DNA from: Patescibacteria group bacterium
GTDB lineage: Bacteria; Patescibacteriota; Minisyncoccia; Phycocordibacterales; UBA9973
Length of the DNA: 64,000 nucleotides
Reading direction: 5' to 3'
Assembly: GCA_040388575.1 (NCBI GenBank)
Contig: JAZKBO010000001.1
Location: forward strand, 6,549-70,548
The notes under the pieces: model-generated
Told to the model about the DNA's origin: nothing
Seen by the model: the letters and a program-made list of their open reading frames with translations, nothing else
Database searches by the model: none
Translations under genes and position numbers: made by a program
In this document: positions 5,344 through 39,748 of the stretch, in pieces
Layout of the letters: every line of letters begins with the position of its first letter
How positions within the stretch are numbered: the stretch's first letter is position 1

Positions 5344-5422
5344 GTATTTAATTATACCACCCTTCCTTTATTACTGTGCAAGTTGTTTATCAACATGGAT
5401 AACTTTCATTAAGGAAGATTTT

Positions 5423-6537: not shown

Positions 6538-6975
6538 ATGGGTCGCGAGGATACGGTACGAACCCTACTGAACTCAATCCCGATTTTCACAAGTCGCGAC
6601 TGGGGCTCCGTGGAGAGAAATGGTAGGGCGGTAGAGCTGGCCAAATCCATTCGGGCAGCCGTCGATCAACGGGACGACGCCAAGATGAAAGAGTTGGCTA
6701 AGGAAATCGACTACTTCATGTCGCCAAGCTTTGTTCTCTTCAAGAGGATGGAGCGTCTCATCGAGAGACAGGGACAGAGGGTTTGGCGCGCCGAACAAGA
6801 CAACGCCGCTTGGCAGAGTCTGATCAGACGCACGTCGATCGTTACACGACGTCGTGATACTGCGGAGCTCGCAGAAATTGCGCCGCGCATCATTGCGTTT
6901 CTCAAGCAGAGGAACGAGCATGTCCTGGCTGGAAGCCTCGAAGAGGCCCTGGCTACATGCAAGGCTCGAAGATAG
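6538..6975 (+). CDS. Hypothetical protein, first gene of high-GC island 1
   Basis: 145-aa ORF. Coding-like composition at about 58% GC against an AT-rich backbone. Arg-rich, no recognised domain. Confidence 0.5.
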   Translation: MGREDTVRTLLNSIPIFTSRDWGSVERNGRAVELAKSIRAAVDQRDDAKMKELAKEIDYFMSPSFVLFKRMERLIERQGQRVWRAEQDNAAWQSLIRRTSIVTRRRDTAELAEIAPRIIAFLKQRNEHVLAGSLEEALATCKARR

Positions 6976-7001
6976 TTCACCCCTAGTAAGGACTAAAAGA
7001 G

Positions 7002-7490
7002 ATGTCGAAGCTGTATTTTACTCGCTCCGGCGCAGATAGAATAATGCGTCAGAAGCAGGCTTTATTTGACAAACTTAGGTCAATTCAAGGCCAGAAAGGA
7101 GAAGCCGCAGAGGTTGGAGGCAACCAGTGGCATGATAATTTCTCCTTCGAGCAACTGTCGCGTGACGAACAGATGGTTAACGCACAAATCACTGAAATCA
7201 ATCGAAAGATTGCCGACATGGTTGTGATTGACCAGCCGCCAGACGACACGAGCAAGCTTCGCATTGGACACATTGCGTTGCTTGATGTTAATGGAGAAAT
7301 CAAAACATATTTGGTGGGGGGCTTTGAAGACTCGGAGAGCTCCACTAAACCGCAGGTCATCAGCTATCTGGCTCCGCTCATCCGCCAATTCATCGGAAAA
7401 GAGCGGGGCTACACGACTTCAATCAAAATCGATGAGAAGACGGTTGAAGTCACGCTCGAGGAGATACAACTACAGAAGGAGGGGAAGTAG
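7002..7490 (+). CDS. GreA/GreB-family transcript-cleavage-factor homologue
   Basis: N-terminal coiled coil and C-terminal FKBP-like domain align with GreA ('NAQITEINRKIADMVVID', 'LRIGHIALLDVNGEIKTYLVGG...ISYLAPLIRQFIGKERGYTTSIKI'). Confidence 0.7.
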   Translation: MSKLYFTRSGADRIMRQKQALFDKLRSIQGQKGEAAEVGGNQWHDNFSFEQLSRDEQMVNAQITEINRKIADMVVIDQPPDDTSKLRIGHIALLDVNGEIKTYLVGGFEDSESSTKPQVISYLAPLIRQFIGKERGYTTSIKIDEKTVEVTLEEIQLQKEGK

Positions 7491-7492
7491 TC

Positions 7493-8047
7493 ATGATCGT
7501 AGCAGTAGAAGGGATTGACTGCGCCGGGAAAGGTGAAGCTTGCCCTAGACTGGCCAGAGCTCTTAATGCAATCTTGTTCAAGACTCCCCCTGAAAGCATG
7601 AGAGGGGAGCAGGATAAGGTCAACGCTACTGCCACGGATGAGGAGCATTATAGTTACTTTACTCGAGTCGTGCAAACGGCATCGAGGGAGTTAGCTGTTC
7701 TGGCTACGAACCGCAACGTGGTAGTAGATCGATATTGGATGACCACAGTGGTTTACCACCGGGTCATGGGAATTCCAGCCAAACTGGCGGATATGGGCAA
7801 CATTATCATTCCGGATATAACCGTCTACCTAACGGTGTCTCCGCAAGTCCAAGCAAAACGAATGGATGGTAGGGGCATGTCTCCGGGCGACAAGCGCATG
7901 GACGGCAGGCAACACCTCATTCGACAAATCTACGACGAAGTCCTGTCCACGGTGGACAAGGTGATTCGCGTAGATACCAGCAATCTTACCCCGGATCAGG
8001 TCATCGACCTGATTCTCGCGGGAATGCCCTCTGTCGACAGCGGCTGA
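7493..8047 (+). CDS. Thymidylate-kinase-like (dNMP kinase fold) protein with an atypical P-loop
   Basis: 'IVAVEGIDCAGKGEA' resembles the TMPK 'IEGxDGAGKST' motif but lacks the Ser/Thr. 'DRYWMTTVVYH' and 'PDITVYLTVSPQVQAKRMDGRG' match TMPK DRx and lid regions. Confidence 0.65.
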   Translation: MIVAVEGIDCAGKGEACPRLARALNAILFKTPPESMRGEQDKVNATATDEEHYSYFTRVVQTASRELAVLATNRNVVVDRYWMTTVVYHRVMGIPAKLADMGNIIIPDITVYLTVSPQVQAKRMDGRGMSPGDKRMDGRQHLIRQIYDEVLSTVDKVIRVDTSNLTPDQVIDLILAGMPSVDSG

Positions 8048-8114: not shown

Positions 8115-8672
8115 ATGAATAACCGAGAGATAGAGGTAAGATTTTTAGAAATTGATAAACAACTTTTAATTAAAAAATTAAGCGATCTTGGGGCGCAAGA
8201 TCATGGAGAAGATTTATTGGAGGAAATTATTTTTTATGACAAGGATCATAAATGGCCAGACGAGGGTAAATTTGTAAGAATAAGAAAGGATAGTAAGGGT
8301 GTATTACTGTCCTACAAGCACCATCAGTCTGAAAATATTAATGGGGTAGAAGAAATTGAATTTGGTATTACAGACAGTGAACAAGCAAAAGTTTTTTTAG
8401 AAAAATTAGGACTAATAGTTTTTAGATACCAACAAAAAAAACGGCATTCGTTCACGTTAAACGGAGTAACTGTGGACATTGATACGTGGCCCAAAATCCC
8501 AACATATCTAGAGCTTGAGGGATCTTCTGAATTAGAACTAAAAGAAGCAGCGGGAAAGCTTCAATTGGATTGGCAGGAGGTAGTTTTTAAAAGCGCGAGA
8601 ACTATTATTGAAGAACAATACCATATACCAGTTAGCTCGATGAAGTGGTTTACTTTTGATAAATTTGAATAA
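8115..8672 (+). CDS. CYTH-domain protein (triphosphate tunnel metalloenzyme; class IV adenylyl cyclase / triphosphatase family)
   Basis: N-terminal 'EIEVRF' (ExExK) motif and C-terminal 'YLELEGSSELE' acidic motif, with matching size. Confidence 0.8.
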   Translation: MNNREIEVRFLEIDKQLLIKKLSDLGAQDHGEDLLEEIIFYDKDHKWPDEGKFVRIRKDSKGVLLSYKHHQSENINGVEEIEFGITDSEQAKVFLEKLGLIVFRYQQKKRHSFTLNGVTVDIDTWPKIPTYLELEGSSELELKEAAGKLQLDWQEVVFKSARTIIEEQYHIPVSSMKWFTFDKFE

Positions 8673-8679
8673 ATAAAAT

Positions 8680-10008
8680 ATGTTTAAATCAGGAAAAGAG
8701 TCTGGAGACTATCTAAGACAAATTGGAAACAGCGTCCCAGAAAAAATTGGCGTTATTGAAAAATCTTTAAATGACAGTAGTTTACCAAAAACTGCAGACG
8801 GAAAAATTAGAATTATTGAACTTGGTATTGGTGGGGGTGAGTCACTTAAGAGACTTAAAAAAAATTCATCTAGTGGTGTAGAATTGATTGCGGTAGATAT
8901 TATTCCAAAGCTAGTAGCTTCGATAAAAAAAGAAACTGGGGTTGATGCGGTAGCTGCAGATGCAGGCACATTGCCTTTTGCCGATATGTCAATTAGCGCC
9001 ATTAATGCATCTGCTATTTTTCATGAAATTAGTTCATACGGCATTGGTAGTAATTTAAAAGATGGGGGTAATTTATATGGAAAGGATGCCATAATCAGAA
9101 CACTTGGAGAATTTAATAGAGTATTACTACCTGAAGGAAAAATTGCTTATAGGGATGTTCTGGCGCCGTCAGAAAATTTAATGGGTGGAAAAAAAGTTAA
9201 CTACTCTCATAAATCGTGGAGGTTATATGCAAATTGGTTTTTAAGAGATTTTGTGAATCCGAGCTCTCGCTTTTACAAAAACATCAACCCAACTATAGAT
9301 GAGGCAGAGGATGGATTCGCTTTAACTGCTCCAGTAGGATTTCAGAGAGATTTTCAACGGCACTATATAATGCTCAGAGACTACCTAAGAAATGTAAAAC
9401 AAAAAGAGTTTGGTTTGACTATGGTCCGTTCGGATTGGTTAGATGAAAAACAAGGACTAAAATCCGTAACATTTTCTTTAGATGAGCGTTTGGGGTCTAT
9501 AATTGATTTGTCAGGTTTTGAAGTACATGATTCCATGGGGGAAAAAATTTATCGTGGTAATTCTGATCAATTTGATAAAATTTATGACGACCTAATGGAA
9601 TATTATTTCACTCAATTAAATAGTGGTTCTGTTGAAGGGAAGATTTTTGCTGAAATCATAAATACATGGAAAGAAAGAGAGGGTTTAGAGAACTATATAT
9701 ATGGAAACATTATTGACATATTGGATTTATCTTATGAGGCAACTAAAAGTAGTAATAGTGAGTGGGTACTTTTTCCTGAATCTACTTCAGATATAGAAAC
9801 CCCATTAAGATTTTATTACAATCGTTATTTAAAGGGTGTTGTAGACTACCCGGAACAGGACGGAAAGCAAATAATATCTTTTAAAAAAATGAAAAGAGAT
9901 CAAGCATTGGATTCACTTAATAAGCTTATGGAATCTCCTTGGTGTATTAAAAATTTAGGTGTTAAAGAAATGGAAAAACTGAGAGTTAAGATAGAACAAT
10001 TAAAATAG
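8680..10008 (+). CDS. Class I SAM-dependent methyltransferase with a ~240-aa C-terminal extension of unknown function
   Basis: Motif I 'IIELGIGGGESL', motif II 'LIAVDII', motif IV-like 'LPFADMSISAINASAIFHEI'. Confidence 0.65.
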   Translation: MFKSGKESGDYLRQIGNSVPEKIGVIEKSLNDSSLPKTADGKIRIIELGIGGGESLKRLKKNSSSGVELIAVDIIPKLVASIKKETGVDAVAADAGTLPFADMSISAINASAIFHEISSYGIGSNLKDGGNLYGKDAIIRTLGEFNRVLLPEGKIAYRDVLAPSENLMGGKKVNYSHKSWRLYANWFLRDFVNPSSRFYKNINPTIDEAEDGFALTAPVGFQRDFQRHYIMLRDYLRNVKQKEFGLTMVRSDWLDEKQGLKSVTFSLDERLGSIIDLSGFEVHDSMGEKIYRGNSDQFDKIYDDLMEYYFTQLNSGSVEGKIFAEIINTWKEREGLENYIYGNIIDILDLSYEATKSSNSEWVLFPESTSDIETPLRFYYNRYLKGVVDYPEQDGKQIISFKKMKRDQALDSLNKLMESPWCIKNLGVKEMEKLRVKIEQLK

Positions 10009-10031
10009 CTACTAAATTTAAATATATAAGA

Positions 10032-10433
10032 ATGAAAAAAACATTAAAAGCTGGGGCTATTATTTTAAGTAGCACAGATAAGAATAAAGTAGCTATCTTG
10101 TATAGCAGTAGGCAAAATGATTACTCTTTTCCAAAAGGACATGTAGAATCTGGCGAAAATGTAATGCAGGCAATGTTAAGGGAGGTAAAGGAAGAAACGG
10201 GATTAGATATAAAAATAATTCAAACTTTACCTGATATTAACTATGCCACCCCGAGTGGAGAAGCTGTTTTAATAAAAATGTTTTTAGTTAAGTCAGAGAA
10301 TGATTCCAAACTCAAACCGGAATTTGATAAAGATAAAATTGAGTGGGTACTTATTGAAGCAGTTACAGAAAAGCTCAGCTATAATAACTTAAAGGAATAT
10401 TTTAACTCGGTAAAACACTTTTTAAATAAATAG
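10032..10433 (+). CDS. NUDIX hydrolase
   Basis: Canonical Nudix box 'GHVESGENVMQAMLREVKEETGL'. Confidence 0.85.
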   Translation: MKKTLKAGAIILSSTDKNKVAILYSSRQNDYSFPKGHVESGENVMQAMLREVKEETGLDIKIIQTLPDINYATPSGEAVLIKMFLVKSENDSKLKPEFDKDKIEWVLIEAVTEKLSYNNLKEYFNSVKHFLNK

Positions 10434-12006: not shown

Positions 12007-14343
12007 CTACTTCAATCCGACCGTCACGGAATAAGTATTTCCGTCATCGAGTTTGACTGATATTTTGTACCAATATCCAGGAATTAGGCCTTTAGTACTC
12101 CAGTTATATATGTATTGAGATCCATCCCATTTAAAGGTATTGCCGCTAGTGGCAGCGTCAGAGTATACCGATTCATCCACCGCGGCGCTCATTTTAGAAC
12201 CTTGTAGCGGTGTGAGCCAAATCGGAGTTGTAGTTGCTTGAGTTATAGTGCCATCAAGTTTCTTTAGTTGAAACTTTACAGGCACTGTGCTGCCTGCCTT
12301 AAACACACTTGCAGTTTGATCCTTTTGGTGTCCAGTATCGTTTATTGGCTGTAAAAATCCAGAGAAAATATAAGGCATTTTAACAACACTATTAGGTATG
12401 CCCACTAGATTAAAATCAACAGTATTGTCACCATTAGTGTCTAATGTTAGTTTAGTTGTATTTTTTATGTCTAAATTTCCTTTAAGAGAAGTTGTTACTG
12501 GTATATCTTTATATATTTCAACTTCGCCTGCTTGATTATTTACTATGTGTGTATCGGTAAGCGTAAAGGTTCCGCTTCCAGTACCTTTCAGAGAAATAGT
12601 ATATGTCTGTCCACTATCGGTAGGAATATAAACGAATTTATGTTCACCCATAATTTCAAAATCAGCGTTGGGAATATTATTTTCAATTCCTCCTGATGAT
12701 AGCCCAGAGTGGTTGCCATTTTGATCTGTCACATCAATGTCTAGTGGACTGTAGACAGATATTAAATCTCCCACCAAGTCACACTCTGAGGGAGTTTGAG
12801 TAATGAGATTGCTATCAACATTTAAATTACTCCCAGAAATTATGTTTACAATTTCCTGCCTGATTCCATTATAACTCAACATTTTTCCATGATCACCCTG
12901 TAATGCAAAGAATTTATGTGTCACATCGATTGGTAAGTTGGTAGAGCTAGCGAGTGGCACCGTTCCATCTCCACTGACCTCTTCTGGTTGATCATATGAA
13001 GCGTTATATGGTACTACGCTAGTATTCCGTCTTTCAATAATTTTACCAATTGTCCCTGTTCTGCAGCCATTTATGCTATACAGATCCACGCCCGCAGTAC
13101 TAAGATCGAAGTTATCAAAATTAGCTGTGTGTAAATTATTTGCTTCAGCAACCCCTTGAGAATTTAACTGGTGGTCGCCAGTAAGAAAATTGTTGGCTTG
13201 ATTAAAGTTAAGGTCTTGTATGTTATTGATCGCTCCTTGGTTTATTATTTTTACATAACTTCCTTTTTGATCAAAATATTGCTGACTTGGTGCTAAATCA
13301 TAAACAGCAGGTAAATTTGATGCAATTTTTTTCATTTCTCCATCAGCTAACCACGGAATGCCAAAACCATCACCTTGGATAAGAACCTTGATAGCTTTTG
13401 GTGCTCCTGTGTTAGGGACCCCTACAAAAATTGCTTTATTAATATAATTATTAGTGAGATTATCAGCGACATATTTTTTAACTACCAGGCCTCCATTACT
13501 ATGTGCAATTATATCAACCTTAGAGACCCCTGTTTTGGTTTTTATATCTAATATTTTTTGCTTAAGTTGATTAACAAGATTGTCATTAACCCCATAACGC
13601 CAATCGTAAGGAAAAAGAAAGAGGTCTGTATTTAAAACGTATCCTTGATTTTGAAATTCTTTAATTAAACCATCCGTGTAATCAGATACAACAACCCTGC
13701 CAAAACCTAAATTAACAGTTTCTTTGCTAAGTACATTACCTAGACTCAAACCCATATTCAGGGGAAGTAAATTATTATCAAATTGCATTGGATCCATAAA
13801 CTGATCGCCAATATCTGTAAAATTTCGTCCTAGGTCAAGCCATAATTTTTGACCACTATTTAAAATTTCTGTTCCCAAAACTCCAGGAACAATTAAAACA
13901 GGATTATGGGTTGGTGGTTGGATGACTGGCACCCCAACCGAATCAATAACTCCATGAGTTACATGAAATAAAATATAATATTTCGGATCTAGAAATTGTT
14001 CGATGGTTGATCCATCACCAGCATTTATAACCATGAAGTTTCCTTGGCCATCAGGGTCGTGAGCCCAGGACCAGTCCCAAGAAAAATCAGAAAGATTACT
14101 TCGAACTTGAAAGCCACCCCAAGAGCGATCAGGTGGGTTGTTCGCCACATATATTACATCCCCAGGCTGGGTGGCTTGATCAAACTCAGGAGAAACAATA
14201 CATAAGGGGTCACAGTGGGTGCCTATGCTACCTGGCAACTGGGTGCCAGTAAAGGCGAAAGCTGAATGAGTAATGAGGAATAAAGTTGCCAAAAAGCCAA
14301 TAAATATAGCCAATTTAAGCATTTTTTTCATAATTAACCTCAT
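12007..14343 (-). CDS. Secreted alpha/beta-hydrolase, LCAT/PGAP1-like lipase with C-terminal beta-sandwich domains
   Basis: Signal peptide. 'PYDWRYG' (LCAT-family motif) and nucleophile elbow 'IIAHSNGGLV' (AxSxG as in Bacillus lipase). Confidence 0.7.
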   Translation of the reverse strand: MRLIMKKMLKLAIFIGFLATLFLITHSAFAFTGTQLPGSIGTHCDPLCIVSPEFDQATQPGDVIYVANNPPDRSWGGFQVRSNLSDFSWDWSWAHDPDGQGNFMVINAGDGSTIEQFLDPKYYILFHVTHGVIDSVGVPVIQPPTHNPVLIVPGVLGTEILNSGQKLWLDLGRNFTDIGDQFMDPMQFDNNLLPLNMGLSLGNVLSKETVNLGFGRVVVSDYTDGLIKEFQNQGYVLNTDLFLFPYDWRYGVNDNLVNQLKQKILDIKTKTGVSKVDIIAHSNGGLVVKKYVADNLTNNYINKAIFVGVPNTGAPKAIKVLIQGDGFGIPWLADGEMKKIASNLPAVYDLAPSQQYFDQKGSYVKIINQGAINNIQDLNFNQANNFLTGDHQLNSQGVAEANNLHTANFDNFDLSTAGVDLYSINGCRTGTIGKIIERRNTSVVPYNASYDQPEEVSGDGTVPLASSTNLPIDVTHKFFALQGDHGKMLSYNGIRQEIVNIISGSNLNVDSNLITQTPSECDLVGDLISVYSPLDIDVTDQNGNHSGLSSGGIENNIPNADFEIMGEHKFVYIPTDSGQTYTISLKGTGSGTFTLTDTHIVNNQAGEVEIYKDIPVTTSLKGNLDIKNTTKLTLDTNGDNTVDFNLVGIPNSVVKMPYIFSGFLQPINDTGHQKDQTASVFKAGSTVPVKFQLKKLDGTITQATTTPIWLTPLQGSKMSAAVDESVYSDAATSGNTFKWDGSQYIYNWSTKGLIPGYWYKISVKLDDGNTYSVTVGLK

Positions 14344-14373
14344 ACTAACAGCATAGTGAGAAAGAGCAAGGGT

Positions 14374-14402
14374 TGACTTTTGGACTATAATATGCTATAC
14401 TA
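14374..14402 (+). promoter_or_regulatory. Sigma-70-like promoter (TTGACT, 17-nt spacer, TATACT) at the AT-rich edge of high-GC island 2
   Basis: Read directly in the divergent intergenic region between the lipase gene and the island. Confidence 0.35.
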
Positions 14403-14458
14403 TATAGGATATCGGGTGGGATTTGCTCACTCGAAGTTCCTTGAGAAAGGGGACAGTC

Positions 14459-14890
14459 ATGCAGAAGAGCTTTCAGTTCGTCCTTGGAATTCTGGCCATC
14501 GCGATCATCATCCTGGCTTTCGCCGCTCCGGCGAAAGCGCAGACGCCGGCGCAGAAGGAGTCCGCGCAGGAGAAGCTCGCGGATGTCGCGATGCCTAACG
14601 AGATGCTGATCAAGGCGCCGACCATGTGCGCCGGCGAGGCGGGCATCCTGATCAAAGAGGTCCGGAACTTCTGCCTCGAGCTCGCACAGATGGAGAAGCA
14701 GCGTTCCATCGCAGCGGCGAAGGCGGCGTCTAAGGCAATCGCGCCGGACAGCACATCCTTCGGCAAGGCACTCCTTACCGGCGTCGCCATCAACGCCCTC
14801 GCACCGCGTGGCTACTACGAGAGCTACAACAGCTACGGGTACGGCGGCTATACTCCCTACATTAGCCCCAACCCCTACTTCCGGCGGTAA
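14459..14890 (+). CDS. Small secreted Ala-rich protein with a Tyr/Gly-rich C-terminus (high-GC island 2)
   Basis: Good SD (GAAAGGGGA) precedes the ATG at 14459. Signal peptide 'FVLGILAIAIIILAFAAPAKA'. The annotated ORF 14423.. is a longer alternative. Confidence 0.5.
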   Translation: MQKSFQFVLGILAIAIIILAFAAPAKAQTPAQKESAQEKLADVAMPNEMLIKAPTMCAGEAGILIKEVRNFCLELAQMEKQRSIAAAKAASKAIAPDSTSFGKALLTGVAINALAPRGYYESYNSYGYGGYTPYISPNPYFRR

Positions 14891-15099
14891 CTTCACCGGC
14901 AACTATCAACGGCGTCGTTTGCAGATCCTTTGGATCCTGCAGGCGGCGCTGTTTCGTTTTTAAGTGCAATTTTTTTATATTAGATTGAAAAACCTAGGTA
15001 TTTTGTAATAATTTATCCATATAAAGCGTCTCGTAAATGGAATATTTAAGCTTGTTGACTGACCCCATATATGTGGTAAAGTCAATTTAGGACGGCTTT

Positions 15100-15447
15100 T
15101 TGACAGCAGAATCCGGGCTGCTTACATATAGTAAGCCCGAGAAAGGAATAAAAGTGACAGGAAGGGCGGGGCTTGAACGACTTGGTGAAAAGCTCGCCCG
15201 CGAGATGGAAAGGATGTTTGACTGCCATCTGGGCGCAAACATACAAATCCTCTCTACCGTGGGAGAGCCCGAAGTAGGACGAGAAAAAATTTACGGGCGG
15301 CTGACCTTTACAATGGTTGACCGCTCACAAAAAAAAATAGAGGAGTGGACCATCGAAGGGGCTGCAAAAAGCTACCTCGATGTCGAGCCCGGGCTGAGGC
15401 CTGTGCTGGTGAATATTGTGTATAGAAGGGAGCAAGTAAATGAGTAA
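15100..15447 (+). CDS. Hypothetical protein, translationally coupled to the FtsZ-like gene
   Basis: 115-aa ORF whose stop overlaps the downstream ATG (ATGAGTAA). Confidence 0.5.
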   Translation: MTAESGLLTYSKPEKGIKVTGRAGLERLGEKLAREMERMFDCHLGANIQILSTVGEPEVGREKIYGRLTFTMVDRSQKKIEEWTIEGAAKSYLDVEPGLRPVLVNIVYRREQVNE

Positions 15448-17011
15448 CGCGGATACACGACCCGACAACGACACCCAAAATACTCAGGTAAACGTCCTCG
15501 TGGCGTCGCCTGGGCAGTTTGGCCTCAACAACGTGCCGATGTGGATGGAGGCAACACCACCGGAAATGGCACCAGGAATAAGTTTCTTGGTGTACGACGC
15601 CGACGGCCCCCTCGGGGGGGATCGATTCAAGCAAGGACATGACGGTCCGAGCCAAGCTATCCAAAAGTGGACTGGCGACAAGACTCGTTTCTCGAGGATC
15701 CAGATCACAGAGGTCATCGACCCCAATGCATCGCCGGCGAGTGAAGCCGGAGACGACTCGCAACCGAAACTCCCGCGAAAGTTTTTCGGGGCGGGCGGTG
15801 ACCCCGCGGTGGGCAAGAGGCTCATCGAGGGACACACCGACAAAATCCAGAACGCGATCCGCGGGAAAGACTTCGTGTTCAATTGGGGAGCGGGCGGCGG
15901 CGGCATCGGAACACCAGGCATGAGGAAGACTGCGGAATGTGCTACCGAAGTCGGCGTGCCCTACCTCTCCGTCCTTCACACTCCCTTCAACGTGGGGCAG
16001 CAAATTGGGATTGCTGAGCGGCTGCGGCTTGATCTGCGCAAGAAGGGGCGGCCCCTTCTCGTCTACAAAAACGCAAATCTTCCCGAGGCCAAACGCAAGA
16101 TGCCACCCAAACAGGTCCTGCGAACTATCAACGAGGCCTGCAGCCCGCTCTTTCGAACCTTCCACATGGCGACCCAGAGAGTCGGCAGTGCGTGGAATTT
16201 CGACCTCAACGATTTCATCACTGCGATGAAGTTCGGTCCCGACGGCTATCACGGCGCATACGACGCGCCGACGAAAGCGAGCGAGACTGAAGGCGAACGA
16301 AGGTTCGACGTGGCTGAATTGCCACAAGTCGTGACCGCTTTGATGTCTGATATCTTTCAGGATCACGACATCGTCGCGAAGGCGCTACTCTTCTGCTTCT
16401 GTGGTCCATGGACCATGGAAGAGATCGACATCATCGAGGCGGGGGTCCGTGAGAAGACTGGGTTCCCAACGCGGGGATTCATCAAGAGGCAAACAAACGA
16501 GGAAGAGACCGAGATGTGGGTTTCTGTCCTGGCATTCGGCACCTTCGCCAGTGAACTCAAGAAAAAAGAGGCACCGAAAGTTCCTGCACCAAGCGGAGTG
16601 CCGCGCCTTCTTTCGGAAAACAAGCCGACTGACGTAGAGTCACCAGCGCCGGTGAAAGAACCGGCAAACGACATACCTTCAATTGCGGCCCAAGCTGCAG
16701 TGAAGTCCGAACCCGCACTTACTCCCGGGTCGCCACAAGGCCCCCAGATGACAATCGCTTTCATCACTGAAAACGGAAGGCAAGTATCACATCAAGTGGA
16801 GACGGAATTGGGCCTCCGTTTCAAGAAGTTGTACCGGCACGGAACGAACCCGGAACTTCGAGAAGCTGTGTGTGAAGAAGTGAAAGTGGCAACAGGAGGC
16901 GATCGTCCCCCGAAATGGGGCGAAATGCCCCGATCCGAAACCCGCCCCTCGCGACTTCAGCAAATGAGGGAACGGCTCACTCGTCGATTCCAAGTTTCAA
17001 CAGGCAATTAG
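15440..17011 (+). CDS. Divergent FtsZ/tubulin-superfamily GTPase with a ~190-aa Pro/Ala-rich C-terminal tail
   Basis: Core aligns with FtsZ: 'FGAGGDPAVGKRL' ~ 'GLGAGANPEVGRN'; 'FVFNWGAGGGGIGTPGMRKTAECATEVGVPYLSVLHTPFN' ~ '[38 protein letters not shown]'; 'NFDLNDFITAMKFGPDGYHG' ~ 'NVDFADVRTVMSEMGYAMMG'. The N-terminal G-box is degenerate. Confidence 0.8.
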   Translation: MSNADTRPDNDTQNTQVNVLVASPGQFGLNNVPMWMEATPPEMAPGISFLVYDADGPLGGDRFKQGHDGPSQAIQKWTGDKTRFSRIQITEVIDPNASPASEAGDDSQPKLPRKFFGAGGDPAVGKRLIEGHTDKIQNAIRGKDFVFNWGAGGGGIGTPGMRKTAECATEVGVPYLSVLHTPFNVGQQIGIAERLRLDLRKKGRPLLVYKNANLPEAKRKMPPKQVLRTINEACSPLFRTFHMATQRVGSAWNFDLNDFITAMKFGPDGYHGAYDAPTKASETEGERRFDVAELPQVVTALMSDIFQDHDIVAKALLFCFCGPWTMEEIDIIEAGVREKTGFPTRGFIKRQTNEEETEMWVSVLAFGTFASELKKKEAPKVPAPSGVPRLLSENKPTDVESPAPVKEPANDIPSIAAQAAVKSEPALTPGSPQGPQMTIAFITENGRQVSHQVETELGLRFKKLYRHGTNPELREAVCEEVKVATGGDRPPKWGEMPRSETRPSRLQQMRERLTRRFQVSTGN

Positions 17012-17024
17012 AAAGGAGAAGTGC

Positions 17025-17798
17025 GTGAAGAAGATTTTCGCATGGCTCCTGCTCCTCTTCTTGTTCCTCCCGGGAACAGCAAGGGCGCAGACAGCCGAGA
17101 AGACACTTCACCTCGAAAGAGGAAGGTGGCTTTGGACACTCCTGATAAACGAAGGGTGTACCAAGGCGGAGACCGCCAAACTCTGGCCGAAAGTGGCCAC
17201 AGATAACGGTCTACCGCTCAATAAGGAGAAGGTTTGGCAACCCCAAACCCTCATCCTCAAGCGTGACTGTCGGGGGGAGTCCCTCGAAGTCATCGCGCTT
17301 CGGAAACAAGTCGCGGAGTTCCCAGGAAAGTTGCAGGAGCTCCAAGATAAGGCGGACAAGAGGCTCGCGGATGAGCTCGCCAAGAAGGACGCCGAAATCG
17401 CACAGCTTCGGAGAAGTGGCATTGTTCTTGGATTGCTAGGTCTGGCGGCTGGTGTAGGGATTGGATGGATTATTCGGGGGCGTCGTGTTCCCGAAATTAA
17501 ATCGGCGTCGCCACTTGTGGAAACGCTGGATCCGAAGATCGTGGCTGTACCGCGAGAAATCACGGTGGAGCACTGGGGTAAGGATTGGGGCTTTGTTCTA
17601 ACCCAACCTCAATATAAGTGCCCAGTCTGCGGGGAAGTTGTGGGCGACGAAGTCGAAGCCCGCGAACACCTGGAAGCTGAGCACAAAGAGGAGGGTCACA
17701 TTTCGTTCAAGACGACCGACCCTCTCCGTCCCGATTCCGAGTTTCCCGACGAAATGGTTGGCTCGCAGACGCGGCACTTTCCGCGAGGCGAGAAGTAG
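17025..17798 (+). CDS. Signal-peptide, coiled-coil, single-TM protein with a C-terminal C2H2-type zinc-finger-like motif
   Basis: Signal peptide 'LLLLFLFLPGTARA'. TM 'IVLGLLGLAAGVGIGWII'. 'YKCPVCGEVVGDEVEAREHLEAEH' fits C-x2-C...H-x4-H. Confidence 0.55.
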   Translation: MKKIFAWLLLLFLFLPGTARAQTAEKTLHLERGRWLWTLLINEGCTKAETAKLWPKVATDNGLPLNKEKVWQPQTLILKRDCRGESLEVIALRKQVAEFPGKLQELQDKADKRLADELAKKDAEIAQLRRSGIVLGLLGLAAGVGIGWIIRGRRVPEIKSASPLVETLDPKIVAVPREITVEHWGKDWGFVLTQPQYKCPVCGEVVGDEVEAREHLEAEHKEEGHISFKTTDPLRPDSEFPDEMVGSQTRHFPRGEK

Positions 17799-17846
17799 CT
17801 CTTCACAAGTAATTAGTTCTTCGTTTGTAACATCAACATCTAAAAA

Positions 17847-17878
17847 GGGCCCCGGCTGGAGATAGCGCGGGGCTTTTT
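17847..17878 (+). terminator. Rho-independent terminator closing high-GC island 2
   Basis: GGGCCCCGG...CGCGGGGC stem followed by TTTTT. Confidence 0.5.
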
Positions 17879-17911
17879 AATTTTCATAAAAATAATGTAT
17901 AATGACGAACA

Positions 17912-18421
17912 ATGGCAAGACCTGAAAGAGGCCCAACAAGCCTAAATTTACGAAACAATAAACCAGAAGAAACTCCTGAAAAGGAGGGGGGATTTTTACG
18001 CAAAGACGATGCTAAACTTGAAAACCTCAGTGAGCAAGATTTAAATAAAATGGCAACAGGAGTTCAAGCTAGGCTAAAAGCAATTGAGAAGGCTCTGTTG
18101 GAAATGGATGAAAAAGAAAAAGTTCTTGTAACGCCGCCAGTGAAGGAAATTAAAAAAAAGGAACCCGCACCCGTACTAGCTTTTGTTAAGCCAGAAGAAA
18201 AAGAAAAAAAATTATCTCCTGAAAATAAAGCAAAATTGGCTAAATTGCGTAAAGAAAGGGCTGGTCTACTTAAGATCATAAGGATTCGAAGGAAACGAAA
18301 TTTGCCTACCAGTGATATGGAGGGTCACGCTGCAAATGTAAAAAATGAAATTTCTGCGCTTGAAAATCTAGGAATAGACCCAGATAATTCTTTAGACTTT
18401 TTCAAATCTGAAGAAGAATAA
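17912..18421 (+). CDS. Hypothetical charged (Lys/Glu-rich) protein
   Basis: 169-aa ORF preceded by a TGnTATAAT element at about 17893. Confidence 0.5.
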   Translation: MARPERGPTSLNLRNNKPEETPEKEGGFLRKDDAKLENLSEQDLNKMATGVQARLKAIEKALLEMDEKEKVLVTPPVKEIKKKEPAPVLAFVKPEEKEKKLSPENKAKLAKLRKERAGLLKIIRIRRKRNLPTSDMEGHAANVKNEISALENLGIDPDNSLDFFKSEEE

Positions 18422-18426
18422 TTTAT

Positions 18427-21400
18427 ATGACCGAAGAAAAAAAGAATTTATTAAAAGAAAAAGGGGCACTTCTGCAAAAGCAGGCTGAAATAAATGCCGA
18501 GTTAGAAAGGCGCGAAATGGCCAGAAATGTAGAGGTTGCCTCTGACGCCGTAAGTAAGGGAGATTATAAAAAACAAGTACAGGCAATGGAGGATGCTTGG
18601 GATACTCCTGATAATTTGCGCCCTGAAATTGAACAACAAAAACTAATGGGTGAAATAGAAGTCTTAGAAGCTGAACTAGAAGGAATAAAATCAAAAATTG
18701 AAGAAAATAAAAATACTGGTAAAACCAGGATAGATCAAATTCTTGCAAGAAAAAAGAAGAGAATAAAAGACGAATTAACCGAAAAAAGAAAAAAGCTTAA
18801 TCTGCTAGGGAAAGCGACCCCAATTAAAAAAGGTTCAGTAAGCGCGAGAGGATATGTAGCATTGTCTAAGAGGCAAGGTAAAAAGTGGCAAAAATTTGCG
18901 GATCAAAGACTTCAAAAAGATGCAGATAGTGCTTTTACAGAAATTGATAAAAAAACTGCTGCAGAAGAAATTAAAAAAACATTGCGAGGCACAGACATTA
19001 GGCTACGTAAAGCTGAGGCAGCCCCAGTTAACATGAGTACGGAAACAGCCGAAGAAACGAGTGGAAATACACCTGAACCTTTATTGACGGAAGAGGAATT
19101 ATTAAATAAGAAAAAGGAGGAAATTCTATCGATACCAAAAATAAAGAAGTTTATTGAAGACCAATCTGGACTCCTAAACTCTTCAAATCACCAAGATAGG
19201 ATGGCGGCAGAAAGAAAATTAAAAGAGATAATGGCTGACCCACTGGCAGCAATTAGGGGGGATTATGACTATTTTGAGGAGGAATTAGCTAAAAACCCTA
19301 ACTCAAAAATACTCAAAAATCGTTTGGGAGAAGCCCGTAAATTGATCGATCAGATCGATGTAATAAATAATAAATATGAACGCCAGGAAGACGAAAGTGA
19401 CTTTGCAAAAACTTTTAAGAACACTTTATTACAAAAAATAGATAACATTCCAGAGGGATCGCCAATTACTGAATCGGTACAGCCTACTGAAAAAGAAAAA
19501 AAAGATTTACTGGAAATTGATAAGGAGATAGCATCATTACCAGCAAAGAAAAAGATGGAACTCGGAAAAGGAATACTCTCTTTTGGTTTTCGAGTTGAGA
19601 AATGGAAAAATTCATTCTGGGCAAATCGTTTCAATAATTTAGAGAAAAAATTTGATGATAGGAGTGATCAAGGTGACACTGTGTATCGTGGAGGAGAAAA
19701 ATTCAATGAAACAGGCGGCACCATGTATCGCTGGACTAAGGCACTTCAAAATAATTTTGAAAAACAGAAAGAAAAAGCGCAAAAACAAATAGATGAAATT
19801 TATGCGGATAAGGCTGGCTTGAAGACTAAAGCCATGAGCCAAGCTAAACTAGCTGGAAATATTTTAAAATATGGCCGGACTTTGTATGATGTGGGGAAGT
19901 GGACAACAGGTGCGCCTTGGAGGTTTATTATGGCCGGCGGTATGGCTATCAGTGCCGGATCCAAAGCAGGCGTTGAGGCAAGATTTGAAAATAAAGATTT
20001 AATAGAACAAACTAGGGTTCAAGACCAGGCGGTTGCCTATGAAGAAGCTTGGGCTCTACACGGCAGCTTTGAAATAAATAAGTCGAAAGAAGAGCTGGAG
20101 GCTGCCTACTTAGCAGCCCTACCTAAGGAGATTAAAAAAAGATTGGAAAATCCAGAAGCAGCCGTAAATTGGGTTCAAGGGGCGTATAAAGTAAGAATAG
20201 GGTATGCACTTGGAAATTTGGATAAAAAAATAAAAAAAATAGAGGGTAATTCGAAATTAAATGATGAGACCAAAAAGGAAAGAGTTGCGACATTACTAAA
20301 AAGTTATGGGGAAGTTTTGCGGGACTTTGATCGAATGCTTACTCAAGCTGGTACTATCGACCAGTGGGTATTGGCAGGTAAAGCCGGACAAGTAGCAGGT
20401 AAAGCTGTAATGGCAAGCTCTATTATACGTTTAGTCTACGATAAAGTAGAACATTTATTTTCACACGGGGTAGCTTCAACTGTGGAGGCTCATCATCCGG
20501 GCGCACTCGGTAACCATGAAGCTAGAATAAGTGGAGTAGGTCATACCGTAGATACACAACCTTCGGCGGCTGATGCAGCGGGAGGAGCCCCGCATGCCGA
20601 AGTGAGTGGAGCCATGAAAAGCGTAGAAATAAAATTTGATCACGGTAAGGGTGGCATCCAAGGAATTGTGGACCTCAAGCACCAGATTGTAGAAAAATAT
20701 GGAAGTATAGAAAAATCTCCGGCAGAGCTTCAGGAATTCTTGAAAGGCAGTTCCACTAAACAAGCAATGGAATTTGGGCTTTTTGATCCTAACCACGCCA
20801 ACGAGAGCGCACTTATCCATGAAGGCTCAACTTTGAAATTTGAAAATGGCCATTTAGTATTTCATGATGCAAAAACTGGTATAGATGTCACTAAATATGA
20901 AACAAAAATGGGAATGCTTGATTCCGACCACAGTGGTCAAGCTCCTGCGGTGGAGCATGCGGAAGCAAATCCCGTAGAGCACCCTGAAGCAGGCAGGTTT
21001 GAACACGCGACTAAAGGAATTAGATTTGATGCGGAGCATATTAAGGCCGGCATAGAATCCAAAATGGATGCGGCCACGCAGAGTATGCCCGGACACAGCG
21101 CAGCGGAGTCAGCTATGAATGCCAAGGAGTCAGCGCTGCGGGAAGTGATGGAGAATAGTGGTTATTCCAGTGTTTCCAAAGGAGTAGCAATTAATGAATA
21201 TAATTTATCTAAACTTTTCCCCAATAATTCATTGAATATGTGGGAAGCAGCTTCCAAGCAACTGCGCGCAATTGATATACTAAAAAACCCTACAATCGGA
21301 GTAAGTGAATTTAATAAACATACTCTTTATGGAAATATTTTCCATTACTTACAAAAAGTGCAAGAAGTGACTGGCCTTAAACCGAAGGGTGCAAGCATAT

Positions 21401-21501
21401 TCCACTGGAAGAGTGAAAGTGTGGCAAGTTATGCAGAAAGATGTCTAAAATTCATCGAAGAAAAGCATCCAGAAAGGCTTAAAGATCTAATTTTAAAATA
21501 A
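18427..21501 (+). CDS. Large hypothetical protein (1024 aa), coiled-coil/charged N-half and His-rich C-half
   Basis: Long uninterrupted ORF in host-like composition. No recognised catalytic motif. Confidence 0.6.
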   Translation: MTEEKKNLLKEKGALLQKQAEINAELERREMARNVEVASDAVSKGDYKKQVQAMEDAWDTPDNLRPEIEQQKLMGEIEVLEAELEGIKSKIEENKNTGKTRIDQILARKKKRIKDELTEKRKKLNLLGKATPIKKGSVSARGYVALSKRQGKKWQKFADQRLQKDADSAFTEIDKKTAAEEIKKTLRGTDIRLRKAEAAPVNMSTETAEETSGNTPEPLLTEEELLNKKKEEILSIPKIKKFIEDQSGLLNSSNHQDRMAAERKLKEIMADPLAAIRGDYDYFEEELAKNPNSKILKNRLGEARKLIDQIDVINNKYERQEDESDFAKTFKNTLLQKIDNIPEGSPITESVQPTEKEKKDLLEIDKEIASLPAKKKMELGKGILSFGFRVEKWKNSFWANRFNNLEKKFDDRSDQGDTVYRGGEKFNETGGTMYRWTKALQNNFEKQKEKAQKQIDEIYADKAGLKTKAMSQAKLAGNILKYGRTLYDVGKWTTGAPWRFIMAGGMAISAGSKAGVEARFENKDLIEQTRVQDQAVAYEEAWALHGSFEINKSKEELEAAYLAALPKEIKKRLENPEAAVNWVQGAYKVRIGYALGNLDKKIKKIEGNSKLNDETKKERVATLLKSYGEVLRDFDRMLTQAGTIDQWVLAGKAGQVAGKAVMASSIIRLVYDKVEHLFSHGVASTVEAHHPGALGNHEARISGVGHTVDTQPSAADAAGGAPHAEVSGAMKSVEIKFDHGKGGIQGIVDLKHQIVEKYGSIEKSPAELQEFLKGSSTKQAMEFGLFDPNHANESALIHEGSTLKFENGHLVFHDAKTGIDVTKYETKMGMLDSDHSGQAPAVEHAEANPVEHPEAGRFEHATKGIRFDAEHIKAGIESKMDAATQSMPGHSAAESAMNAKESALREVMENSGYSSVSKGVAINEYNLSKLFPNNSLNMWEAASKQLRAIDILKNPTIGVSEFNKHTLYGNIFHYLQKVQEVTGLKPKGASIFHWKSESVASYAERCLKFIEEKHPERLKDLILK

Positions 21502-25345: not shown

Positions 25346-28300
25346 ATGAACTTTAAGAATCCACGAATTCAAAAGCTAACTTCCGCCCTCTTGGTTATTG
25401 CCGTTCTCGTTCCAGTATTATTATTTTTTTCAGCGCCTAAAAAAGTGGAGGCTCAAGGCTCTGGCTGGCCTCAATTTGTTCAGCTTGTTCTCATTGGAGG
25501 CAGTACGGGAAAATCACAGGTCACAGGGACAGCTTCGTTGGCTATCCAAATAAGACAGCAAGCCAAATTAGTGCTGGCTGAAGTATTGAAAGGCATCGCT
25601 CGCAGGCTTCTACAACAGATGACCAAGAGTACCATCAACTGGATCAATTCCGGTTTCCACGGCGCGCCGCTTTTCGTAGAAAATCCAAAATCATTTTTTG
25701 GTGATATTGAAAAGTATGAGGTAAGGAATTTCGTGGATCAGATCGGCTACGACTCCCTGCGGTTTCCATTCGGCAAAACTACCGCTTTAAATATCATTAA
25801 TACGTTCCGCCGCAGCCCAACCGCAGGATTAGAATACACTTTAAGTAACGTAATAAACGATCCGGTTTATCTAGAAAATTATAGAAATAATTTCAATGTC
25901 GGCGGCTGGAATGGCTTCCTAATAAATACCCAGTATCCGCAAAATAATGCAATTGGCTTCCGATTACTTGCAACTGAAGAAATATCTAAGAGGTTAGATA
26001 TAAATGACATCCACACAAATGCGGGGCAGATACAAAACACTCTCAATCAAGGACTTGGATTCCTCTCACCGCAAACCTGTCCATCTAATCCAAAATATAA
26101 TAATTTACAGAATCAATTTAATCAGCCAACATTTAAGTCTACAACTCCTTGGAATCCACCTCCAGAAATTAGCGACCAATGGAGCCCAGATGAGTACCCC
26201 GCTATACTCCAGCATTATACAGATACTTACAATCAAACAGTTGCAAATGAACGTGCAGACTGGCTTAGAAGTACAGGTTGCCCAGGCGGCTTGGTTAATA
26301 CTACCCCAGGATCTGCAGTAGGCGCAGCGCTCAATAAAGCCCTCGGCGGAAGCCAGGATCAAACCACGCTTGCAGCGGCAATGGGTAATAGTGTTTCCCA
26401 GATTGTGGACAGCCTCCTAAATCATTTCTTGCAGAAAGGCTTAAATGCACTCTCAAGCACAGTTAATCCACCCAAGCCCGTGGATGATTGGAGTTACGAC
26501 GGCCAGTCCCTCGGTACAGACATACCATCTAACAGTAGTGCTTGGGATGCGGGCCCAGATGAACTCGTGGTACTTGCTGACTTTAAACAAGGAGTAGTCG
26601 ACGGTATAAAAAATACTCAGGAGGAAATTGGCTTGATGGATAATAGAAATCCAAAAAATCCTGGCATCATTCAGGAAATAAACTTGATCTGGCCGCAAAT
26701 CAGGCAGCTCGACCAGTGTATTCCGGGTCCGGATGTAAAATGGGGAGATCGTTTGCAAACTGAGTGGGAAAGAAATGACCAAAAGTTCCAAGAGAAGGCA
26801 AGTGATCAAAATGGCGAAAAGGCTGCGCTGGCTAGAATCGCAAGCCAGGAATTGCAATATGCTGTCAAATCTTTTGAGGATTGGATAAAAAATAAAATGA
26901 TCCTCGCATTACCTGACTCCGTCAACTACATTGATGCAGTAGATGGTGCACTTGATCCGCTGAACAATCAGTCGAATGATTTATTGAATAGTAAAAGGGT
27001 CAGAATCCAATCATTAGCAAGATTGCAGTCCATTCAAGCAAATTTAAATCGCTTTACGACCGATCCTGCACCGAACTCAGGCGCAGCACAAGCCTTAATA
27101 AATCTATACAAGCAATACAAAGCAGTTCGACCAACAATATCGAGTAGTGAGAGTATCGAAGACTCCCGAAATGAACTCAACATGTTGAAAGAGCAATTGG
27201 TTAGTACGATAGATATGACCAAGCAATGTAAAACTGAAAGAACCCAGAACGGCTGGGGGCCAATAGACACGTCAGGCAAGGGCGGGGCCAGGGCTCCAGG
27301 CTCACAATCAGGACCATCTTCTACCCCATCCATATTCGGGGGGTCATCAGCACCATCGAGATCAACTGAAAAAGGATATTTCTGTGATAGCCCGATAGTG
27401 GGTGGATTTTCGCACGGCGAAGCCACTGTTACTTCTGGGGCTTTTGGTTTTAACAGCACTAATGATGAAGTGTTATTTAAACAACGAACTACTCCGCCTG
27501 CATATGGTAATGAGTTGCCGATGGTAAACGCTAGCAACGTTCCTTATAGCTGGGGAATTTTAGGGGACAAGAGGACTAATGTTGAGGTCAACTGCAAAAT
27601 ATTATTCAAGGCCAGTGTGCTCGATTACAAAGGAAGCATTAATGGGCTGACCACCATAAGTGATAATGGTGGAGGTGGTGCAGGATCAGGCTCTGGTGGT
27701 ACATGTGTTGATACAGGTCCGGCAACTCCACCAAAAATTGCGGCACCTACTAGTGTCTGGAATCCACCACCACAAACTATGGTGCCGGGGACCATCCATC
27801 CAGAAGCTTTGGTCAACAACGGCTGGTGGCCTCACTTATCACCAGATGGAAAATTCGTAGCCTATGGCAACTTCGGCGGCAGTTGGGTAAGCAACCTTTT
27901 AACTAAAAAAACTTACGACCTTACAAACCCGCCTGGTTTGCCGGCGGGGGGACGATGTTACAGTGGTTTTTGGTTACAAGATAGCAGCGTGATTTCAGAG
28001 TGGTGTGAAATCCCAGGAGGGGATTACTACAATCGATACATATGGACATACAATACTAGCCAGGACACTTGGACATCAACACCAACTGGCGAGAATCCTA
28101 ACCTTGTGGCAGGAAATTATTTCGGGGCAGATAAGGGCCACTGGTTCTCAGAATTGGCAGGCAAGAGAATAGTACTAGACGGCAAAGTCCTAGCGACTAC
28201 TCCACCTCCAGGCACAACCTCTGACCCTAACGACGTAGCTGGTTCGGCAATGGTCGGAACATCTATCTCTCAAGATGGTGATACCATCGTTCATGCTTGT

Positions 28301-29368: not shown

Positions 29369-29369
29369 A

Positions 29370-31703: not shown

Positions 31704-31714
31704 AAAATAAAAAT

Positions 31715-32749: not shown

Positions 32750-32750
32750 T

Positions 32751-33224: not shown

Positions 33225-33238
33225 TATATAATAAAATT

Positions 33239-33889: not shown

Positions 33890-33897
33890 ATAAATTT

Positions 33898-35814: not shown

Positions 35815-35839
35815 AGTTTTACGTGATATAATTAAACCA

Positions 35840-37916: not shown

Positions 37917-37920
37917 TTTT

Positions 37921-39746: not shown

Positions 39747-39748
39747 AT

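Follow-up and report, generated by a model that had tools for sequence, protein, structure and literature searches.

The locus studied here raises the question of whether a bacterium of the candidate phyla radiation (CPR) carries, within a block of unusual base composition, a true relative of the division GTPase FtsZ and, if so, what the genes beside it have to do with it. The stretch analysed, hereafter the window, consists of 64,000 nucleotides of contig JAZKBO010000001.1 from a Patescibacteria group bacterium, and the block, or island, extends over positions 14420-17880. It contains four genes, the third of which encodes a protein of 523 residues (NCBI V4486_00145) that the original prediction, made from the letters of the sequence, had taken for a horizontally acquired FtsZ/tubulin paralogue with dedicated partners. 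Profile comparisons and a structural model indicate that this protein is a real and very divergent member of the FtsZ/tubulin superfamily, and comparison of homologous loci indicates that positions 15055-17880 form a three-gene operon conserved throughout a CPR-specific branch of the FtsZ family.

Fold and motifs of the FtsZ-like protein

Single-sequence comparison of the 523-residue protein with the Pfam Tubulin model (PF00091) yields an expectation value (E) of 2.9e-5 with a score of 24.9 bits, short of the cut-off of 33, and the FtsZ equivalog model TIGR00065 is matched with 41.1 bits for a cut-off of 295.2. PF00091 is matched by 26/26 family members in alignment A1, and the FtsZ_C model (PF12327), undetected in the window protein, was found in 2 of the 26 sequences of this alignment, both of them canonical. 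FtsZ structures in the PDB are matched by the protein itself at E ~2e-8 over residues 101-269 and by a profile of the close family at E = 2.7e-28 with both FtsZ domains covered, canonical FtsZ being the closest family by profile. The same profile matches CetZ at 1e-11 to 1e-5, TubZ/RepX at 9.5e-4 and tubulin/BtubA at 0.3. Membership of the CetZ family was considered and rejected, the matches to structures 4b45, 3zid and 4b46 falling short of those to FtsZ by 17 to 23 orders of magnitude.

A structural model was built with AlphaFold2 (AF2) on a 94-sequence alignment, an earlier single-sequence run with a predicted local distance difference test score (pLDDT) of 35 having been discarded; the model retained has a pLDDT of 85.3 and a predicted template-modelling score (pTM) of 0.71. 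Its core (residues ~10-380) superimposes in Foldseek on FtsZ structures of the PDB over ~305 residues (E = 4e-21) with template-modelling (TM) scores, relative to the target, of 0.77-0.84, and on phage tubulins with scores of 0.57-0.67 at 10-13% identity. As modelled, the protein has the complete two-domain FtsZ fold, composed of the nucleotide-binding domain, helix H7 and the C-terminal activation domain. The superfamily membership proposed originally is in this way borne out by the Pfam, TIGR00065, PDB profile, AF2 and Foldseek comparisons alike.

Analysis of the nucleotide-binding loops (Table 1) evidences both conservation and remodelling. The T3 loop is conserved as GAGGDPAVG, and the conserved motif residues comprise G117, G119, G153-155, the T6 asparagine (Asn211) and, within the T7 loop, N253, D255 and D258, the last three being conserved in at least 90% of the 94 aligned sequences. 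The T1 loop reads SPGQFGLNN and retains G25, G28 and N30, with two glycines missing relative to the GGGGxGxN of FtsZ. A loop of the PG(N/Q)xGxNN type recalls the tubulin T1 loop GQCGNQ. In T4 of the window protein the threonine is replaced by isoleucine and in T5 the glutamate is lost, and most relatives retain the T4 threonine and the T5 Glu-Gly pair. Between T2 and T3 the family carries an insertion, so that this region measures 28-79 residues versus 15-20 in canonical FtsZ. Its tryptophan (W77 here) is kept in most insertion-bearing members and is leucine in P0034 and P0121; none of the canonical FtsZs aligned has a tryptophan-bearing insertion.

The C-terminal region had been described as a Pro/Ala-rich tail of ~190 residues. 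In the model it resolves instead into a disordered linker of ~60 residues (375-435), a folded domain (436-484) and a basic helix (505-519). The linker varies in length and sequence across the family; the module which follows it is conserved in 20 family members, and its terminal basic helix recalls the C-terminal peptide of FtsZ. A profile of the C-terminal domain gave no significant match in the PDB. A likeness to ubiquitin in residues 436-490 (16745-16909; a helix and a GIPPDQ segment) was also considered and rejected: a single ubiquitin is matched at E = 0.54, and the likeness is probably due to chance because the low values obtained with polyubiquitin are summation artefacts.

The operon and its partner proteins

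Relatives of the protein were found by an exhaustive HMMER scan covering 1.84 billion representatives. Such a scan was needed, as word-index searches with the single protein or with an 11-sequence profile returned just the query and canonical FtsZs. Ten representatives were matched at E < 1e-30 (24-44% identity), followed by a second tier at 1e-17 to 1e-8, beyond which canonical FtsZs appear, matching in the T3-T7 core alone. A rough neighbour-joining tree sets the proteins with the tryptophan insertion apart from canonical FtsZ and places the window protein beside P0004/P0151. All the named hosts belong to the CPR (a Patescibacteria-group bacterium, Parcubacteria GW2011_GWA1_59_11 and Candidatus Giovannonibacteria), and several members are automatically annotated in public records as 'cell division protein FtsZ'. 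The original prediction had considered a host-derived gene set in view of a GC content typical of Actinobacteria, and this part of it finds no support, every relative of named source being from Patescibacteria or Parcubacteria. The family has zero matches in 50,697 phage records, in 72,556 plasmid records and in IMG/VR, and a scan of metagenomes gave one short contig. In a scan of GTDB genomes the patterns specific for the close family found no loci, and wider patterns were saturated by canonical FtsZ.

The order small protein, FtsZ-like protein and finger-bearing partner recurs in ten lineages (the window; P0006; L002-L004; L005-L007; L008/L009; L010; L011; L001; L094/L095; and L097-L099, from Giovannonibacteria). 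At several loci the stop and start codons within the operon overlap or abut, so that the small-protein and FtsZ-like genes are often coupled in translation, and in the window the stop of the small-protein gene overlaps the start of the FtsZ-like gene by 8 nucleotides. The downstream gene encodes 225-306 residues in the relatives and is tightly spaced or overlapping, with the difference that in L001 it encodes 92. We thus find that the idea of dedicated partners holds for the genes of 115 and 257 residues, present in every lineage examined, and not for the Ala-rich secreted protein encoded by the first gene of the island. Loci L001 and L010 agree in their chromosomal flank, a sign that in at least one lineage the operon has been inherited vertically; integrase, replication or tRNA attachment (att) features were found beside none of the copies.

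Some of these loci have particularities of their own. In L001 (7645-9817) both partner genes are present and uncalled in the annotation, and the frame of the small upstream protein continues into what is annotated as an N-terminal extension of the FtsZ-like protein, so that the published start of the FtsZ-like gene may be wrong. The operon is 100% identical between L002 and L003, and a ~1.3-kb segment just upstream of it is inverted between them (94.7% identity; L002 777-2289 versus L003 1-1854), because either the strains are rearranged here or the assemblies differ. A run of N and an HNH-like stretch (CWNCH) break up the partner gene of L008 (3536-4563), and the copy in L009 (2234-3097) is intact and otherwise identical; the interruption probably arose in assembly or scaffolding, or else is an insertion. 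The L006 and L007 loci lie near cell-wall genes, encoding a D-Ala-D-Ala carboxypeptidase and an MraY-family transferase.

The partner of 257 residues has the features of a bitopic membrane protein. A signal peptide (residues 1-21) is followed by an invariant glutamine (Gln22) after the cleavage site, an extracytoplasmic head bracketed by Cys45 and Cys82, a coiled coil, a transmembrane helix (131-152), the residues RGRR and, on the cytoplasmic side, an HWG motif with a C2H2-like finger (CPVC...HLEAEH, 199-220) formed by C199, C202, H215 and H220. In the topology predicted from the sequence, the putative zinc finger faces the cytoplasm, and head and coiled coil lie on the outer side of the membrane. 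Homology among the downstream proteins is evident from tblastn comparison of the window partner with L002 (E = 8e-15) and L011 (E = 5e-6), and they share one architecture: signal peptide and invariant glutamine, a head of ~60 residues with two invariant cysteines, a coiled coil of variable length, one transmembrane helix with basic residues, a cytoplasmic (H)WG motif and an invariant CxxC...H...H. Alignment A6 shows no variation in the four finger ligands, and 10/10 orthologues have the motif. In L001 the partner is a soluble protein of 92 residues, consisting of the finger domain only and overlapping the stop codon of the FtsZ-like gene, which points to the finger domain as the functional core of the partner. 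The zf-Di19 model matches weakly (E = 0.0034, below the cut-off). A LysM-like fold of the extracytoplasmic head, suspected from the sequence pattern, was discarded as it is unsupported by Pfam or PDB profile searches.

At all loci an orthologue of the small upstream protein is encoded ahead of the FtsZ-like one (alignment A8), and the small protein of the window shows a weak yet recognisable kinship to its L002 counterpart (tblastn E = 2e-6). Its more likely start is a GTG at 15154 behind GAAAGGA, giving 97 residues. Its secondary structure follows an alpha-beta-beta-alpha-beta pattern, and some orthologues have an N-terminal transmembrane helix. No match was found in Pfam, NCBIfam, PHROG or the PDB. 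Upstream of this gene, a nested palindrome spans both the -35 and -10 elements of the promoter-like site and may be an operator; its sequence is identical in L093, an 84%-identical relative of this region described below, and was not seen upstream of the operon in other lineages. Iteron arrays or centromere-like repeats upstream of the operon were looked for, with only short chance matches as a result.

Possible roles of the module

On balance the module seems to be a lineage-specific, FtsZ-derived and membrane-associated cytoskeletal machine of ultra-small CPR bacteria, serving division or envelope remodelling, a reading which we infer with moderate confidence. According to it, the FtsZ-like protein would bind GTP and polymerise head-to-tail, the T7 aspartates of one subunit completing the active site of the next. 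The linker and C-terminal module would dock on the cytoplasmic zinc-finger domain of the partner and so tether the filaments to the membrane, and the dimeric coiled coil of the partner would couple them mechanically to the cell wall or surface, with the small protein as a stoichiometric adaptor or regulator. An aid to division, envelope remodelling and the positioning of surface structures could all be the biological role.

The part assigned here to the 257-residue protein would be like that of the tethers FtsA, ZipA, SepF and EzrA, by which FtsZ-type filaments in the cytoplasm are held at the membrane, and ZipA and EzrA resemble it further in being single-pass membrane proteins encoded next to or near the filament gene. 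No sequence kinship to FtsZ tethers was detected, the matches to EzrA, DivIC and FtsB being coiled-coil noise (E about 0.1-0.7), and relative to ZipA the topology of the partner is reversed, with the N-terminus outside and the zinc finger inside. We found no described precedent for a C2H2-like finger as a cytoskeletal docking domain.

A number of observations weigh against the picture of a filament-forming, membrane-tethered machine. The non-canonical T1 loop, the Thr to Ile exchange in T4 and the loss of the T5 glutamate suggest that nucleotide handling by the window protein may be altered. The partner genes have no significant family assignment, and the match of the 257-residue protein to classical C2H2 fingers is short and reaches E = 1e-4 by summation over tandem fingers, single fingers giving E about 1. 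The flanking genes differ between lineages, so that the neighbourhood gives no clue to the role, and the GC pattern considered below is not cleanly explained by a single transfer.

It is possible, if doubtful, that the system works independently of division, as a second machine beside the canonical divisome, for instance for envelope remodelling or for surface or attachment positioning in episymbiotic cells; tentatively, one may add to this that the operon is prone to exchange between CPR lineages. Canonical FtsZ is encoded in the division and cell wall (dcw) cluster, next to ftsA/ftsQ, and no dcw genes stand beside the FtsZ-like gene in the window or in the homologous loci examined.

The same protein might on the other hand be the main cell-division FtsZ of its hosts, a fast-evolving replacement for which the zinc-finger protein would serve as anchor instead of FtsA, ZipA or SepF. 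FtsZ is its closest family by a wide margin, several members end in a motif of the F/L-x-R-R type like the FtsZ C-terminal peptide, the public annotation of several members is in line with it, neither canonical ftsZ nor ftsA occurs within the 64-kb window, and the L006 and L007 operons have the cell-wall neighbours mentioned above. We nonetheless consider this unlikely: the operon lies outside dcw-type clusters at every locus examined, CPR bacteria including Paceibacteria have an FtsZ with canonical motifs in a dcw context (PMC9871819), and the window amounts to <10% of a typical genome, so that the absence of ftsZ from it says little. In comparison with canonical FtsZ, the window protein is alike in its two-domain fold, its T3 loop (GAGGDPxVG), T4 glycines, T6 asparagine and T7 NxDxxD, and in the succession of globular core, disordered linker and short basic/hydrophobic C-terminal peptide. 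It differs in the TIGR00065 score far below the cut-off, the lack of a detectable FtsZ_C, the altered T1 and the tryptophan insertion, as well as in having an extra folded C-terminal domain and two partner genes of its own.

One earlier mention of a divergent FtsZ in CPR bacteria was found in the literature. Some genomes (Paceibacterales) carry a long-branch copy, for which an origin from the FtsZ of the CPR was proposed (Santana-Molina et al. 2023, PMC9871819), and the present family is alike in being a long-branch FtsZ of Patescibacteria. The published sequences (PIS34807.1, PIR58248.1, PIR91708.1, OGZ80043.1 and GBD33795.1) differ from it in having a GGGGG T1 loop and no T2-T3 insertion; they keep the normal T2-T3 spacing, PFSFEG and INLDF(A/S)DF, and no partner genes are described for them. 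Given these differences in motifs, the published divergent CPR FtsZ is a different group. The supplementary alignments searched from that study contain none of the T1 strings seen in the present family, and a search for a link between the family and its supplement by accession prefix gave no match.

The remodelled loops also bring in the possibility of a degenerate, non-polymerising pseudo-GTPase or regulator of FtsZ fold, acting with the zinc-finger protein as a scaffold or sensor. The T1 loop (PGQFGLNN versus GGGGGNA), the Ile in T4, the lost T5 glutamate and the scores far below the FtsZ model thresholds would all suit such a protein, which appears quite improbable on account of the residues that are kept: N253, D255 and D258 matter only at the polymer interface and are invariant or nearly so in the family, the T3/T4 glycines and the T6 asparagine are conserved, most relatives keep the T4 threonine and T5 Glu-Gly, and the form of T1 is like that of tubulin.

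Other remodelled members of the superfamily are FtsZl1 and FtsZl2 (Makarova & Koonin 2010, PMC2875224), for which a role in membrane remodelling together with membrane-associated operon partners was proposed. The window protein shares with them its divergence, the location outside the division cluster, inserts between T1 and T4 and a C-terminal region foreign to FtsZ. FtsZl1 is described as having a long coiled coil, no recognisable T6-H7-T7 and, as associates, vWA, P-loop GTPase and OmpA proteins; FtsZl2 is confined to Proteobacteria and lacks conserved neighbours, and both have Tubulin_2 domains (PMC2875224). In the window protein T7 is intact, as is the C-terminal activation domain of FtsZ, Tubulin_2 (PF13809) has no match, the hosts of the family are CPR bacteria, and the operon joins it to a small protein and to a membrane protein with a zinc finger.

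A segregation cassette of the TubZ/PhuZ kind, carried by an integrated mobile element and with the small protein or the finger as DNA-binding adaptor, is highly improbable. The order of a small protein followed by a tubulin-like GTPase mimics tubR-tubZ, a flexible C-terminal tail for partner binding is likewise found in the TubZ-TubR-tubC and PhuZ systems, the block is compositionally foreign, its chromosomal location varies by lineage and a palindrome lies at the promoter. Nevertheless TubZ/PhuZ is far more distant than FtsZ both in sequence (E = 1e-3 for TubZ/RepX versus 2.7e-28) and in structure, as given above for the phage tubulins, the context is chromosomal in CPR bacteria, no phage, plasmid or IMG/VR matches were found, and no iteron array or centromere repeats and no integrase, replication or tRNA-att neighbours accompany the copies. 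The flank common to L001 and L010 speaks for vertical descent, and the finger protein is normally a membrane protein with a secreted head. The TubZ/PhuZ-like logic which the original prediction had suggested is not supported.

Full-text searches found no description of this FtsZ-like family or of its operon, a result which is provisional as the subscription literature was not covered.

Setting, composition and origin of the island

The window lies on a 130-kb contig of a CPR metagenome-assembled genome and has the look of ordinary chromosomal DNA. Around the island are housekeeping genes encoding polynucleotide phosphorylase (PNPase), UvrD, KsgA, PBP1, tyrosyl-tRNA synthetase (TyrRS), RuvC/RuvB, PilB, PolA, UvrB and UvrA, and also near it are a pilus-like or type IV secretion cluster and the genes for Jag-YidC and DnaA-DnaN. 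One tRNA is found in the window, which is otherwise without Rfam matches. The island has a GC content of 55.0%, versus 41.1% for the remaining window, corresponding to z = 4.8 relative to non-overlapping 3.46-kb segments (mean 41.2%, standard deviation 2.9, maximum 47.5). The GC-rich block is therefore real. The 57-60% originally quoted is slightly high for the block as a whole and fits its coding stretches, of which 14420-14960 has 59.7% GC and 15100-17800 has 55.8%, values of 62-64% being reached locally. The GC content at third codon positions (GC3) of the four genes is, in order, 0.83, 0.52, 0.64 and 0.62, with most backbone genes at 0.25-0.46: the difference thus sits in synonymous sites and not only in amino acid content.

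In place of the single block first described, the island consists of two transcription units, a secreted-protein gene and the three-gene operon, as evidenced by a hairpin closing the first unit, an AT-rich spacer (14961-15099, 29.5% GC) which splits the GC-rich block and a second promoter-like site (Table 1). The other elements described originally were all found, namely a promoter-like site at the start and the GC-rich terminator at the end, the four genes with their 8-nucleotide overlap, and the T4, T7 and CPVC...HLEAEH motifs. The first promoter-like site sits in a divergent intergenic region common with a gene for an LCAT-like lipase. The secreted protein carries a signal peptide, and in the list of open reading frames its start is a TTG at 14423. 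It has one relative (P0166, 80% identity), and no homologue adjoins the FtsZ-like operons of the other lineages examined; its gene is a separate passenger, outside the conserved module.

Table 1. Features of the island and of the genes following it (positions in the window)
Feature	Positions	Strand	Remarks
Promoter-like site TTGACT-17-TATACT with upstream TG	14373..14401	+	10/12 matches
Secreted Ala-rich, Tyr/Gly-tailed orphan protein, 143 residues (V4486_00135)	14459..14890	+	GC 0.62, GC3 0.83
Stable hairpin closing the first unit, then UUUCGUUUUU	14916..14945	+	-22.8 kcal/mol, z = -4.1
Operon promoter-like site TTGACT-16-TAAAGT (15055-15082) in 31-nucleotide nested palindrome TTGACTGACCCCATATATGTGGTAAAGTCAA	15055..15085	+	
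Small accessory protein, 115 residues (TTG start)	15100..15447	+	
Divergent FtsZ-fold GTPase, 523 residues (V4486_00145), as predicted	15440..17011	+	profile and structure matches to FtsZ
Variant T1 loop ASPGQFGLNNVP	15503..15538	+	subfamily consensus PG(N/Q)xGxNN replaces FtsZ GGGGGNA
Family-specific T2-T3 insertion, residues 58-113	15611..15778	+	extra helix with Trp77, disordered loop
T4 signature loop WGAGGGGIGTPG, residues 150-160 GAGGGGIGTPG	15884..15919	+	GGGTGTG with Thr to Ile
T7 synergy loop AWNFDLNDF (NFDLNDF, residues 253-259)	16190..16216	+	
Disordered Pro/Ala/Ser/Glu/Lys-rich linker, residues 375-435	16562..16744	+	pLDDT 37-63
C-terminal module: beta-beta-alpha-alpha domain (436-484) and basic helix RLQQMRERLTRRF (505-519)	16745..16996	+	pLDDT 79-96
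Bitopic partner, 257 residues	17025..17798	+	tblastn to L002, E = 8e-15
Intrinsic terminator of the operon: GC-rich hairpin, then UUUUUAAUUUU (U-run)	17844..17878	+	-22.6 kcal/mol, z = -3.3
Possible lineage-specific extension: Lys/Glu-rich genes of 169 and 1024 residues, host-like GC	17912..21501	+	size and order match at P0006

The two genes downstream of the operon may be an extension of the module, which is not established. At P0006, genes of 165 and 1145 residues follow the operon in the same order, the match being one of size and order alone, and counterparts are absent after the operon at the other loci.

The sharp GC steps at both ends of the island and its metagenome-assembled source could suggest that the assembly is chimeric here or that GC-rich DNA of another source, such as Actinobacteria, has contaminated it, but the probability of this is next to negligible because the junctions are reproduced independently, on the left by L093 (a 910-bp contig of an unrelated sequencing run which matches window 14179-15086 with 84% identity), which repeats the lipase/secreted-gene/promoter junction with the same contrast (gene 0.60 GC, flanks 0.35-0.40) and also keeps the hairpin at 14916-14945, and elsewhere by L002, L003 and L004, which come from three different samples and are identical across a GC-rich to GC-poor junction, to which may be added that the intergenic regions of the island are AT-rich with host-type promoter signals and that orthologous operons lie inside low-GC CPR contigs of several independent assemblies, the relatives being CPR bacteria and not Actinobacteria.

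We have compared the GC3 of the operon with that of the flanking genes across loci. The excess amounts to +0.30 in the window, +0.35 in L002, +0.22 in L001, +0.16 in L011, +0.10 in L094, +0.06 in both L005 and L008, +0.02 in L010 and -0.01 in L095; it is thus never clearly negative, and large in low-GC hosts only. The operon is compositionally foreign in the window genome, and its horizontal acquisition there is plausible. However, neither a simple transfer nor a recent single one accounts for the pattern, because the excess recurs in low-GC hosts and L093 shares the left junction; in addition, the FtsZ-like proteins of the window and of L002 have 37% identity, which indicates that the excess does not go back to one recent event. 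Repeated exchange from GC-richer CPR lineages is the simplest reading, and the family occurs in a Parcubacterium of 59% GC; a process that holds the operon GC-rich locally may also explain the excess. PADLOC gave no matches, leaving a defence-system origin of the island unsupported, and the search for direct repeats or att-like sites at its borders gave short chance matches at most.

The FtsZ-like island is the largest compositional anomaly of a mosaic genome and not the sole one. GC3 values of 0.57-0.64 are also found at 6538-8047 (an unknown protein of 145 residues, a GreA-like protein and thymidylate kinase) and at 59397-59870 (157 residues, a weak MGS-like match), and in the AT-rich pockets at 4522-6367 and 8115-10433 the GC content is merely 30-34%. 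The lipase-like gene divergent from the island (12007-14343, minus strand) encodes a secreted LCAT/lipase-like alpha/beta hydrolase of 778 residues, with 41-48% GC at its 5' coding end (about 13900-14300) and 32-35% deeper in the gene. At 25346-39258, two proteins without known domains (1340 and 777 residues), a PrgI-family protein, a TraG/VirB4-like ATPase and a type IV secretion pilin-like protein compose what is, judged by its gene content, a type IV secretion or pilus-like system of a kind frequent in CPR genomes. The order Jag-like R3H protein, YidC, gap, DnaA and DnaN at 39267-43926 probably marks the chromosomal origin region, and the cumulative GC skew rises near-monotonically across the window without a clear switch.

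For the evolution of the family, it is a puzzle that the operon is so often richer in GC than its low-GC hosts, which may reflect repeated transfer or locally biased substitution. As regards the cell biology of its hosts, the CPR comprises a large share of bacterial diversity, and since few members are cultured and the cells are tiny, how these cells are organised is almost unknown. A conserved operon which combines a remodelled FtsZ with a membrane-spanning, finger-bearing partner offers a testable entry to division and envelope organisation in the CPR and, if the finger is indeed the dock for the filaments, the means by which FtsZ is tethered to membranes would be extended by a new type.

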